A stretch of 37,454 bases of DNA, taken from a virus (lineage: Duplodnaviria > Heunggongvirae > Uroviricota > Caudoviricetes). The position numbers were made by a program. Each line of letters begins with the position of its first letter. Within the stretch, counting starts at the first letter, position 1. Positions 33,001-37,454 of this stretch are shown here, piece by piece. Location: positions 1-37,454 of IMG/VR virus record IMGVR_UViG_2531839195_000016. One strand, 5' to 3'.

Positions 33001-36000
33001 GTGCTGCTTATCGTGGCGTTCGTGGTGCTATCGCGCCAGAAGCTCAGCAGGCTATCAGATTTGCAGAGCGTGAAGGAGTTCCTCTGCACACCACAGACCT
33101 GTTACAACCAACTTCCCGCGTCGGAAAAATGGCGCAGACTACAGCAGAAAATATCCCTCTGGCTGGCACAAGCGGAATGAGAGCAACGCAACAGGAAGCG
33201 AGAAGCCAGTTGGTGCAGAGATTTGCTGATAAATTCGGGGAGTATGATCCAGCGGTTGTTATTGACAGCCTTAAAGCGAAAACATCAGGAATTCGTCGTG
33301 CCGCCGGTAATCGACTGGAGCAGGTTCAGAATGCTATGGCTGGAGTAAACATTCAGCCTGCGCGAGCAATTCAGCAGATTGATACAGAAATATCTAACCT
33401 GCAGAAGCTTGGTAAGGTGGCTGATAACGAGACAATTTCAAAACTTCAGTCATATCGTGATGAGCTTGTTCGCAATGCTGGCCCTGAAGGTCCGGTAAAT
33501 CTGGATTTGAAGCAATTAAGCGACCTGCGCAGTCAGTTCAGAATGGACGTGAAGGGTGAGCGACCAGTGTTACCAAACCGTTCCGATGCTGCCATTCAGC
33601 GCGTTTACAAGGCGATGACCGACGATATCAATGGTGCCATTGGTCAGAATCTTGGCAACGATACTCTCCGTAAATATCAGCAGGCCAATGCCGTCTACGC
33701 TGACGAAGCGGCGAAACTAAAGAATACCAGGCTGAAGAATGTTCTCATGAAAGGCGACCTGACGCCGGAAGTTGTCAACAACATGCTATTCAGCAAGAAC
33801 AAATCGGAAATTAAGACGCTGTATAACTCAGTTGGTCGTGTTGGCAGGGTGCAAATGCGCAATGGCATCATTGGAAAGGCGATGGAGAAATCTGGCGGAT
33901 CCCCTGACCAGTTCCTTCGGCAGCTTAACATCCTGCAAAACCAGACTGGCATCACATTTAAGGGGCAGGACGCTGCTTATCTGAAAGGATTGAAAAATTA
34001 CCTTCAGTCCACTCAGCAGGCAGCAAAAGCGGCAGTAACAACACCAACAGGGCAGCAAACCATCCCGTTCATTATCGGGTATGGGACGGCAATGAACCCG
34101 GCGACAACTGGCGCAGCGGTAAGCTACGGACTTCTTACTCGCGCCTATGAGAGCGAGCCATTCAGAAATGCAATGCTCCGAATGGCAAATACCCCACGCG
34201 GATCAACAGCGTTTGAGAAAGCCATGCAGCAGGCGCAAAAGGCCATTAACGCCCTGACTCAGGGTGCCAAGTCTGATGCGTTGTCAGAATAGCTTCGCAA
34301 ACACCAGGAACGTGCAAAAACCAAATATGTAGAACGCAATATTCAGCATATCTCTTTGCATAAATCCTCCGTAACTGATGGTTAGCTGCTGTCTTTTTTA
34401 TATAGCTCTTTGAGCGTATCAAAGACAATTTTCTTAACCATATCGGATTGTTGTTCTGCCATACGCTCTGCATCGTCAATGTAAACTGATGCAGAGTTTT
34501 GTTTATCCAGTGATTCTTCAATCGCTGCAATTATCTCTGAGTTCAGAGACCTGTTATTCATCTTCGCACGCTGCTTAATTTTCGCGTGGAGTTCATGCGG
34601 AAGTCTCAAGTGAAACTGCGCCTCGTCGTATTTGCTGTACATCCTTGATGCCTCACCAATTGGGTGGAATGGCATCGTAACTTACTGGATAAATACTCAA
34701 TAGTACCATTTCGGTATGCAATCACATCATGGTTGCATCATATCATTCGTCTGGAGCAATGAAATGTCAGATATCACCTACTCAACAGATGGTCAGCAAC
34801 CATGTTTGCTGCCTTATAAGCTATAGCCGCTTCATCAATGGTGTTGAATCTCCCAAGGGTTATGTTTTTACCTGAGACATTTATCTGAGCTTGCCATTGA
34901 TTTCTGGCTTGACAGAAAGTTACCCCCTTGATTCCAGCATTGCTATTTCGAGGTCCGACATTTAATGCATTTACGACTCTGCTGACATCCCTAAGGTTTG
35001 AGATTGCGTTATTTCTTCTGTTTCTATCAATGTGGTCAATCTCTTGTTTGGGCCATTCGCCATATACATACAGCCAGGCAAGTCTATGTGCAAAATATCT
35101 TACGCCATCAATATTAATTGCGTTATATCCATAAGAAATTGTGCCAGCAACTTTCCCAACAGCACCTCTGGCGCTTAATTTCTTTTTCCAAGTGAAAATT
35201 CCTGTTTCTTTATTGTAATAGAGAACCTCCATAAGGCGCTCCCGAGTTACTACCTCGTGACGTCTCTTACTCATTATTTTCTCCGGAATGTTTATTATGC
35301 CAGAACAATTATACAACGTTGTTGTTTCACAACCAAGTCAGTTATTTACTTTAGCTCGCTCGTTTAAAGCAAATGCCAATGGAAAAATTTATATCGGGAA
35401 AATTGACACTGACCCGGTAAATCCTGAAAACCAGATTCAGGTTTATGTAGAGAATGAAGACGGATCTCACGTCCCTGTTTCTCAGCCAATTGTTATCAAT
35501 GCTGCCGGATATCCTGTGTACAACGGGCAGATTGCCAAATTTGTAACTGAGCAAGGCCATTCAATGGCTGTATATGATGCGTATGGTTCGCAACAGTTCT
35601 ATTTTCCGAATTTGCTGAAGTATGACCCGGATCAGTTAAAGCAGTTACTTCAATCTGATGAAGGGGCTACTTACATTGGCACTAATAGCGGGAAAAATCT
35701 TCAAGATGAGCTATTTGCAATAAAAAATGAAATATATCAAGACCCGCTTACATCGTGGCCTTTCGGTGGAACATTAAAAATAAAGCAAGGGGTGTATGAT
35801 GTTACCACTCCTCTGGTACTTAATTATGATGATTACCCTGCCGACTTTGTAGGTGCTCCGGGTGTCCGCTGTTTTTACTCAGGCGAGAACATGGCTGAGA
35901 CAATACTGGAATGTAGAGCTACTGATTTTAACGTAAAAATGCTAGGTGACGCAGCGTTTAACAGTCAGAGATTGGCTGCATATGACTACATCGGCAACAT

Positions 36001-37454
36001 GACGCTGAAAGGGAATCCCGGAAGTTACGGTATGCTGGTGCAGAATAAAGCACATACTCGTCTTGAAAACATTGTTATCTGCCGCCACCCTGACGGGGAA
36101 GGGTTACGCACTGACTCGATGCTCACGAGCGACATGACGAACGTGTACTTGCAGAGTAATCGTATCGGTTGGCGTGCTACCAACTCCGTAAATCATTCTG
36201 AACTGAACGCTATAACTGCAAATAGGCTTACGTGCAGTCAGAACAGTGAATGGGGTATCCTCGGGGACCGCTGGGGTGCTGGTACAACTATCAATAGCCT
36301 GACTTGTGAAGGAAATGGTACTCAGGGGGATTCCAGTACAGGTGGTGCGCAATTAGCCATAAATGGCCTTAACGGTTCGTGCGCTTTGGTATTAAACAAC
36401 CCATACTTTGAGGCTAATGCCGGGGGGGCAGACCTTGCTATAGATAATACTGGGACGCGCCCTGTAACTGTGGTTATAAACGGTGGAAATTTTCATCGCG
36501 TGAGCAGTGCAAGATACACGCACACTAATATTCAAGTAACAAGCTCAGGTGGGGAAAAGTTACAGTCATACTCAACGGCACAACGTTCCAGAGCGCAGGG
36601 GATTATCAGCCAAGTGCAGATCGACCATACTGGATAACAGGAGCTAATTGCGAGGTAGTTGACATTGGGTGTGTTTTTACAGAAACAACCAGTAAGGCAA
36701 CATCGGCTTCTGCATTGTCAGTCACACGCTCGGGAAAAATTAACGCCAATGGTAGTATCGACGTTGCTACTGGTGTTTCATCGGTTAACGTGGTTGCTAC
36801 AGGTGTGTATGAGGTTAGCTTTTCTCATCCGCTCGCAGCAGTTGCTAGCGGTTATATTGTGCAGATAACACCTATATCTGCGCCTGATTCAGTTAGTTGT
36901 GATGTTACTTATATTGGCGTAGATACATTTAGGGTGACCCTGCGCAATACGCTTAGCGGAGCAGGAATCTCTAGTTCGTTTGCATTTAGCATTACCAGGC
37001 TACTATAAACACGACAGCCTCCCTACGGGAATACGTAGGGAGGCGGATTCATTGTTATTTATTAATGTGAAGTTTTATTTTTTATTAAATCAAGAGTTAA
37101 CCATGGAGGGAGCACTGTAAATGAGACGGCTTCTCCATGTTTTGCTTTATTTATTAATTCTGCTCCTTGAGACCAGTTCATGTCAGGAAGAGGGGTTATA
37201 AAAAAGTTTAATTTTATCATTGCAATAAGGATGACTGAAACATAGATTTTAAAGAATATTTTTAAGGTTTTATTCTTTATGCATTGAAACAAACAAACGC
37301 ATATTAATGAAAAAATTGCAATATGAATATTTACAAAATACCTTGACCCGTTTCCGGTTGCAAGTGTTGGCAGTTGAGGAACAGAATCTGCCAGTTGAGG
37401 TTTTGCCATAGAAAATGCGACAATAAGTATTGGAAGGGTGGCAAACACTTTCAT

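Follow-up and report, generated by a model that had tools for sequence, protein, structure and literature searches.

The tailspike locus of an SfX-like prophage in the Shigella flexneri K-404 assembly: a probable homopolymer under-call, an exchangeable receptor-binding module and an HNH cassette

The viral DNA analysed here (IMG/VR record IMGVR_UViG_2531839195_000016, positions 1 to 37,454; hereafter the window, meaning the whole stretch of 37,454 nucleotides) is identical to contig AKMZ01000014.1 (GCA_000268025.1) of Shigella flexneri K-404, and close to its right end, at 35288-37008, lies the tailspike gene with which this report is concerned. The gene occupies the late-operon position typical of P22-like phages, in the order gp7/gp20/gp16-like genes, mnt, tailspike, gtrX-gtrB-gtrA and int. 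In sister loci from other assemblies the order is mnt, HNH endonuclease gene, tailspike (570 amino acids), gtrX (421 amino acids), gtrB, gtrA and int. The upstream neighbour, a Mnt/Arc-family repressor gene of the immI region on the minus strand (34382..34675; Pfam Arc PF03869, E 3e-14, and Repressor_Mnt PF11423, E 3e-14), is found in every sister locus. Directly upstream of the tailspike gene, on the opposite strand, is an HNH_3 gene (34774-35274); an HNH endonuclease upstream had been noted in the preliminary description of this DNA. Downstream and convergent with the tailspike gene is gtrX, which encodes the serotype-specific O-antigen glucosyltransferase of SfX; its 3' part falls within the window (37062..37454, minus strand, assigned by alignment with L05001), and the rest lies past the window's end. 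In the sister assemblies gtrX specifies 421 amino acids and is followed by gtrB and gtrA.

Between the two convergent genes lies an 11-bp GC-rich hairpin (37017..37044), recognized as a terminator-like match and by its folding energy of about -24 kcal/mol on each strand (z-scores of -5.5 and -5.3), and it is probably a terminator shared by the tailspike gene and gtrX. The strong bidirectional terminator that had been proposed here stands as regards the stability of the hairpin on both strands, but its U-tracts are imperfect and a consensus scan called the minus strand only. The impression that the region is richer in AT than the head genes is confirmed by the GC fractions: the tailspike gene has 0.449 and the HNH insert 0.405, compared with 0.509 for the head and tail genes (20871-34292). 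Across the 3' end of the tailspike gene and gtrX, the window is 99.7% identical to the 1993 record of the serotype-converting phage SfX (L05001). The gene at 35288-37008 is thus the tailspike gene of a long-known phage, already annotated in many genomes, and we hold with good confidence, as part of our explanation as a whole, that the host element is an SfX-type P22-like (Lederbergvirus) serotype-converting prophage of S. flexneri K-404.

As assembled, the gene is not a single open reading frame (ORF). The span 35288-37008 comprises 1721 nucleotides, no multiple of three, and the ORF list for the window instead contains two plus-strand ORFs in different frames, 35288..36637 (449 amino acids) and 36715..37008 (97 amino acids). 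Three-frame translation shows that the frame entered from ATG 35288 or 35297 ends at TAA 36635-36637 after an unconserved tail, and that the -1 frame is open over 36529-37008, reading to SITRLL and a stop. Of the two ATG codons, 35288 was rejected as the start; relatives and the sister annotation begin at 35297, which gives the 570-amino-acid product. The assembled plus-strand tailspike ORF (35297..36637) therefore specifies 446 residues, the final 26 of them out of frame. The missing C-terminal 151 codons and stop, from GKVTVILNG to SITRLL, lie in the -1 frame at 36553..37008 on the plus strand; they specify the final rungs of the beta-helix together with the C-terminal beta domain, and they match the gene's 3' end in L05001 at 99.7% identity.

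Alignment with two intact homologues, those of Escherichia coli PapM-32-1 (570 amino acids) and Sf101 (gp15, 580 amino acids), placed the break at a run of four G on the plus strand (36551..36554) that is one G short of the run of five in all relatives. The window reads GGTGGGGAAAAG (36548-36559), one G fewer than GGTGGGGGAAAAG in the PapM-32-1 homologue, and Sf101 reads GGTGGAGGGAAAT at the same place. The two pieces cover contiguous positions of the phrog_17420 profile (14-426, E 9.6e-231, and 427-567, E 3.1e-54), and the intact protein of 570 amino acids, the translation of positions 9003-10715 of sister locus L005, equals the two window pieces joined at SSGG/GKVTV. A single uninterrupted ORF, as a P22-like tailspike would have, is lacking in the window and present in six otherwise identical sister assemblies. 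The earlier reader had thus recognized an actual tailspike gene, but in the sequence as given 35288-37008 is not one reading frame; the frame is broken at 36551-36554, and the reader had translated through the frameshift. In reality, our overall explanation holds with good confidence, the tailspike is a single gene of 570 codons.

The encoded protein has a modular architecture. Residues 1-116 (35297..35644, plus strand) make up a head-binding domain, the anchor to the tail hub, which matches PF09008 over the full profile (1-113; E 1.9e-62), as expected of the N-terminus of a P22-like tailspike. This domain is nearly identical to that of Sf6 gp14 (7sg7; residues 4-116, E 1.8e-62), and the match to P22 gp9 (2xc1; E about 1e-45) is limited to residues 6-126 (gp9 residues 5-123), with no collinearity beyond residue ~126. 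A P22-type anchor of about 110 residues had been predicted, together with an Asn/Gly/Thr-rich beta-helix-like remainder and a small C-terminal domain, and these expectations were upheld; neither outcome that had been named as refuting them, collinearity with P22 gp9 over the full length or the lack of a predicted beta-helix, was observed. A linker and helical neck occupy residues ~117-157 (35645..35767, plus strand), as judged from model helices at 111-153 and from similarity to Sf11 gp13 that starts at residue 121, a position that appears to mark the module junction. A right-handed parallel beta-helix, the predicted receptor-binding and enzymatic domain, follows at residues ~158-470 (35768..36705 on the plus strand, allowing for the missing base), and a C-terminal beta domain at residues ~478-568 (36727-36999, plus strand).

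The fold assignment derives from an AlphaFold2 model of a monomer of P0001, a homologue 84% identical in sequence, for which the two window pieces served as alignment rows. In the model, helices at 111-153 form the neck, short strands follow one another in a long series over 158-470, and a beta domain at 478-568 stands apart, with predicted local distance difference test (pLDDT) values of 80-97 in the beta-helix from residue ~195 on. The part that follows the anchor is 37% Gly, Thr, Ser and Asn, and a central beta-helix succeeded by a C-terminal domain is again the layout of a P22-like tailspike. The best full-length Foldseek match of the model is the Sf6 tailspike. In our judgement the beta-helix prediction is robust for this model, and it singles out no particular enzyme family; a Pfam search of the receptor-binding part found no family.

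The receptor-binding module nevertheless belongs to a described family, since it is homologous throughout to phrog_17420. A phmmer search aligned residues 121-569 with residues 136-584 of 9occ_G (585 amino acids, Sf11 gp13) at ~72% identity (E 7.8e-217), and full-length relatives of 570-580 amino acids (Sf101 gp15, PapM-32-1 WP_250845500 and that of G3/10) share 76-84% protein identity with the tailspike. The preliminary description of a divergent receptor-binding region is hence apt in relation to P22 gp9 but not in the sense of a novel sequence. Identity is unevenly distributed: nucleotides ~100-500 of the gene are 96-100% identical to Sf101 and PapM-32-1, compared with 54-73% in the centre of the gene, and in the protein identity is lowest over residues ~181-300 (56-70%) and highest over residues ~301-390 (83-100%, even relative to Sf11). 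Within this conserved core E338, E372 and D379 are invariant or nearly so.

The same receptor-binding module is found behind three different N-termini, namely PF09008 here, PF18668 in Sf11-like proteins, and PF18668 together with PF03906, the T7 tail-fibre N-terminus, in proteins of 673-774 amino acids. Conversely, one locus (L009) carries the same HNH gene and tailspike 5' end joined to a different 3' receptor-binding part, with an O-acetyltransferase (acyltransferase) gene in place of gtr. The mosaic identity, the three N-termini and the exchanged 3' part bear out the suggestion of a swapped receptor-specificity cassette, and support the view that a conserved P22/Sf6-type anchor carries a receptor-binding cassette that can be exchanged. 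SfX, a classical converting phage, thus shares its receptor-binding module with Sf101 and with the siphophage Sf11, which clearly illustrates how a single O-antigen-specific module can serve with different tail adaptors.

From the SfX context and the hosts of Sf11 and Sf101, we infer that the O-antigen backbone common to S. flexneri is what the tailspike binds and probably hydrolyses. That backbone, rhamnose-rhamnose-rhamnose-N-acetylglucosamine (Rha-Rha-Rha-GlcNAc), contains no uronic acid, and lyase chemistry by beta-elimination was therefore rejected in favour of a hydrolytic mechanism. Following the paradigm of P22 and Sf6, residues 1-116 would attach the tailspike, presumably trimeric, to the tail hub, and the short helical neck would link this anchor to the beta-helix (~158-470) and the C-terminal beta domain (~478-568). 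The beta-helix would bind the S. flexneri O-antigen and most likely hydrolyse it, allowing the virion to reach the outer membrane, and the convergent gtrX-gtrB-gtrA genes would glucosylate the same O-antigen in the lysogen. Host O-antigen specificity had been considered unreadable from the sequence, yet it can largely be deduced from the SfX context, from gtrX (99.7% identical to L05001) and from the serotype Y receptor of Sf11. The siphophage Sf11 needs S. flexneri O-antigen, with serotype Y as its receptor, and can be plated on strain PE577, which is of that serotype (PMC12724387). Serotypes 1a, 1b, 3b and Y are infected by Sf101 (PMC4159516), and its gp15 is a homologue of the tailspike.

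The beta-helix might instead only bind the O-antigen or modify it in another way, for example by deacetylation, or its substrate might not be the S. flexneri O-antigen at all. The receptor-binding part has no sequence similarity to the endorhamnosidase domain of Sf6, which leaves room for such a role, but we consider it unlikely. The acidic residues E338, E372 and D379 are invariant or nearly so on consecutive rungs within the most conserved block (301-390), infection by Sf11 is O-antigen-dependent, and the gene adjoins gtrX in an O-antigen-converting S. flexneri prophage. Moreover, the P22-like tailspikes that have been studied well are, to our knowledge, all depolymerases of O-antigen or capsule.

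Whether the frame is intact in nature was judged by comparison with independent sister assemblies, reached by way of the neighbouring gp16-like, portal and DnaB-like proteins. Relative to window positions 34293-37454, the loci L005 (on the complete chromosome CP058589.1), L007, L008, L010, L012 and L013 show 0 substitutions and two one-base gaps. The recorded gene calls are a tailspike of 570 amino acids in five of these (L005, L007, L008, L012 and L013) and a GtrX of 421 amino acids in all six. The tailspike gene call in L010 is only 207 amino acids long, despite a sequence that is the same as that of L005, and we judge the 207-residue calls in L010 and in L011 to be annotation differences; L011 has one substitution, and both loci have the run of five G. 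The 446-residue product of the window is exactly EIQ33438.1 of S. flexneri K-404, encoded on the single contig AKMZ01000014.1 only.

We widened the comparison to positions 852-38198 with the help of L005-L013, L015-L020 and L024, the last of which covers the prophage's left half on CP058589.1. Outside two tandem-repeat arrays, all 11 of the 11 indels are deletions in K-404 within homopolymer runs, with 0 insertions, and substitutions in the compared stretches number only 6 over 21.4 kb and 0 over 11.9 kb. The shortened runs are T6 to T5 at 1058, A6 to A5 at 2033, T6 to T5 at 2252, C4 to C2 at 5431 (by coordinates in the erf-region genes), A7 to A6 at 10205 (by coordinates in a replication O-like gene), T7 to T6 at 18798 (these first six in the early region), A6 to A5 at 21924 and A4 to A3 at 22222 (both in terL), G5 to G4 at 36550 (tailspike), T7 to T6 at 37077 (last codons of gtrX) and A6 to A5 at 37838 (gtrX, beyond the window). 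Together they would break terL, the tailspike gene and gtrX and, by coordinates, also replication and erf-region genes.

Because all 11 indels are homopolymer deletions and the sister sequences are otherwise identical and have five G, the sequence comparison makes it very likely that the tailspike frameshift is a homopolymer under-call of the 2012 draft assembly. An all-deletion homopolymer pattern of this kind is the signature of under-calling and is not what a decaying prophage or a mutator would leave. The splits in terL belong to the same class of artefact as the tailspike break. In terL (20871-22276), two one-base losses leave ORFs of 397 amino acids and ~70 or 145 amino acids, where the sister TerL has 499. 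The gtrX gene, for its part, extends to ~38340 of the contig; the loss near 37077 shifts its last codons, and that at 37838 splits it, leaving a call of 253 amino acids compared with 421 in the sister genomes.

If the missing G were real, the K-404 prophage would be defective and its tailspike a pseudogene, whose 446-residue product, deprived of the C-terminal domain and the final rungs of the beta-helix, would probably fail to trimerise. The frameshift is, after all, present in the sequence as given, Shigella prophages do decay (the same tailspike in CP026810.1 is cut at 333 amino acids by an IS3-family element), and the cluster of tailspike proteins at 90% identity includes many partial fragments. 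Decay or a mutator phenotype should, however, give insertions and many transitions, whereas all 11 indels are homopolymer losses accompanied by hardly any substitutions; true decay, as in CP026810.1, took the form of an insertion-sequence (IS) element, unlike the pattern in K-404; and the frameshifted allele occurs on one 2012 draft contig only. We therefore regard a real deletion as quite improbable. The locus on CP026810.1, a further Shigella chromosome (L023; 3275904-3283905), is a prophage remnant that consists of mnt, a tailspike fragment and IS copies, and its tailspike allele, ended at 333 amino acids by the IS3-family insertion, lacks the HNH gene. The 260-member tailspike protein cluster consists mostly of fragments at contig ends.

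A programmed -1 ribosomal frameshift or transcriptional slippage at GGGGAAAAG, giving both a truncated and a full-length tailspike, was rejected and retains next to no plausibility: the shift needed is indeed -1, at a G4A4G stretch, and A-AAG is a shift-prone A-site codon in E. coli, as known from dnaX, but the zero frame reads GGT GGG GAA AAG with no in-frame X_XXY_YYZ heptamer, efficient transcriptional slippage needs longer runs than G4 and A4, the full-length relatives (mostly 570 amino acids) and the sister loci are all single ORFs with five G and show no two-frame layout, and ten more homopolymer losses occur in the same assembly in unrelated genes and intergenic DNA.

Several points weigh against our account of an intact, O-antigen-hydrolysing tailspike. 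A literature search on how K-404 was sequenced found nothing, and a genuine K-404-specific deletion of the G is formally possible, the artefact having been judged from assembled sequences. The beta-helix fold is assigned from a monomer of an 84%-identical homologue and not from the exact protein, and that model has a mean pLDDT of only 76.5 and a poorly modelled N-terminal domain. No member of the receptor-binding family has a solved catalytic domain or demonstrated enzyme activity. The experimental structure of Sf11 gp13 (9OCC) is modelled over residues 4-59 only, leaving the receptor-binding domain without an experimental structure (PMC12724387), and the description 'LPS-hydrolysing' (LPS, lipopolysaccharide) was reached by inference in the Sf11 paper too (PMC12724387).

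For users of the K-404 assembly the consequences are practical. It systematically drops one base in homopolymers, its gene models are unreliable wherever runs of at least four identical bases occur, and its "broken genes" call for comparison with sister genomes; neither the two-ORF tailspike nor the interrupted terL and gtrX should be taken for pseudogenes or for cases of recoding. A solved catalytic domain and the cleavage specificity of the receptor-binding family would matter for Shigella phage typing and for the design of phage therapy.

The HNH cassette in the first codons of the tailspike gene is the sole element at this locus that goes beyond routine annotation, and we offer it as a modest side observation. 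The gene (34774..35274, minus strand) specifies a predicted HNH-AP2 endonuclease of 166 amino acids with an HNH_3 match above the cutoff (PF13392, E 2.1e-16), an intact EIDHIDRNRRNNAISNLR motif, membership in phrog_99 (E 1.7e-62) and a weak AP2 match (PF00847, 27.7 bits, below the cutoff of 33.3). Alignment with alleles that lack the HNH gene identified a relic of the ancestral tailspike start on the plus strand (34753..34778), consisting of a GGAG ribosome-binding site followed by ATG TCA GAT ATC ACC (MSDIT), that forms the left junction. HNH-less alleles (L006, L014, PapM-32-1 and Sf101) are identical to the window up to this junction at 34778, and their tailspike 5' end runs on through …GGAGCAATGAAATGTCAGATATCACCGCAAATGTTGTGGTAAGCATGCCTTCGCAACTCTTCACTATGGC…. 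The cassette, of about 520 nucleotides and with the HNH gene reversed, thus interrupts the ancestral tailspike ORF directly behind codon 5, and the TGA stop and last Arg codon of the HNH gene make use of the TCACCT retained from the ancestral tailspike codons.

To the right of the HNH gene, the new tailspike 5' end (35297..35378, plus strand, 27 codons) is recoded. It is 53% identical in nucleotide sequence to the HNH-less alleles, compared with 97% for codons 28-120, and 13 of its differing codons specify an unchanged amino acid, among them two serine switches, AGC/TCA and TCG/AGT. The left junction occurs in 239 of 5426 complete E. coli genomes; about 224 of these carry an uninterrupted tailspike, with the match stopping exactly at 34778, and 15 carry the cassette at 98.8-99.6% identity. 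In exactly 15 of the 5426 genomes the recoded patch and the HNH gene are contiguous, so that patch and gene are linked in 15 of 15. The cassette also precedes tailspikes with unrelated receptor-binding domains, those of phage Kapi1 (792 amino acids) and E. coli AR_0058 (724 amino acids), and in M160133 (L029, positions 2575-3084) a different HNH-AP2 gene, 42% identical in its core, occupies the same junction.

By these alignments, the HNH gene is a mobile cassette that supplies a replacement, recoded tailspike 5' end. A precise presence/absence polymorphism together with divergence at the putative target is what a homing cassette would leave, and the pattern fits intronless homing with target-site immunity by a putative endonuclease. 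The synonymously recoded patch of 27 codons could make a carrier of the cassette immune to cleavage, and the cassette would spread among P22-like prophages of Shigella and E. coli whatever their receptor-binding domain (tailspikes of 570, 724 and 792 amino acids). That the HNH-AP2 protein is an active intronless homing endonuclease targeting the conserved 5' coding sequence of P22-like tailspikes is a tentative proposal, to which we give somewhat less than even weight; if it is true, breaks at the boundary of the conserved anchor could help to drive the exchange of receptor-binding cassettes. A search of the literature for an HNH gene at a P22-like tailspike gave no relevant publication; the HNH gene mentioned in the epsilon34 paper lies in another part of that genome, and the Kapi1 paper is silent on its HNH gene. 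The retained ribosome-binding site and ATG also open a leftover ORF of 20 codons (34764-34826, MSDITYSTDGQQPCLLPYKL and a stop), antisense to the 3' end of the HNH gene. It is probably meaningless, though late transcripts would carry its translation.

Two tandem-repeat arrays vary elsewhere in the window. Downstream of the coat gene, at ~26944-26990, the copy number of a CAGAGC hexamer array varies by +18 to -36 nucleotides between otherwise identical assemblies, which reflects either a real change of the variable-number tandem repeat type or the collapse of the array in short-read assembly. Near 29125, in a gene of the Phage_tail_NK family (28992-29840), a 9-nucleotide repeat, GGCCAACAA, varies among the sister assemblies; its copy number changes in frame, giving proteins of 282, 285 or 288 amino acids.

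Of the known systems, Sf6 gp14 (an endorhamnosidase; 2VBK/2VBM, 7SG7, 7UKJ) resembles the tailspike in overall architecture, host species and genome position, and shares its head-binding domain, with DNA that is 94.5% identical. The two proteins differ in length (623 amino acids in Sf6 compared with 570 here) and in the receptor-binding domain, where no sequence similarity is detectable and structural alignment gives 10-11% identity. Homology of the receptor-binding domain to that of Sf6 was accordingly rejected, as the phmmer match ends at residue 116 and the Foldseek comparison with 2vbm, at 10% identity, speaks to fold class only. The catalytic Glu/Asp pair of Sf6 gp14, E366/D399, is intersubunit, and E338, E372 and D379 of the present protein are candidates only. 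P22 gp9 likewise shares the head-binding domain, the beta-helix architecture and the position as last late gene after the ejection proteins and immI, but it is 667 amino acids long instead of 570, acts on another O-antigen and is not collinear with the tailspike past residue ~126.

The closest relatives are Sf101 gp15 and its E. coli prophage homologues, which are collinear over their full length, have the same head-binding domain and lie beside O-antigen modification genes. They differ in a central zone (residues ~181-300) that is only 56-70% identical to the tailspike studied here and in lacking the HNH cassette and keeping the ancestral 5' end; Sf101, in addition, carries an O-acetyltransferase gene in place of gtr. 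Sf11 gp13 (9OCC), from a siphophage, is homologous throughout the receptor-binding module (residues 121-569), but in place of a P22-type head-binding domain it has a helical PF18668-type adaptor that docks on the siphophage distal tail protein. Finally, the HNH cassette resembles free-standing HNH(-AP2) homing endonucleases (T4 Mob/Seg-type; phrog_99) in its HNH_3 domain (with a possible AP2-like DNA-binding tail, the match to which falls below the Pfam cutoff), its site-precise polymorphism, the divergent patch beside the insertion and the second HNH lineage at the same site; unlike them, it lies within the first codons of an essential structural gene, runs in the opposite direction and provides that gene with a replacement start.

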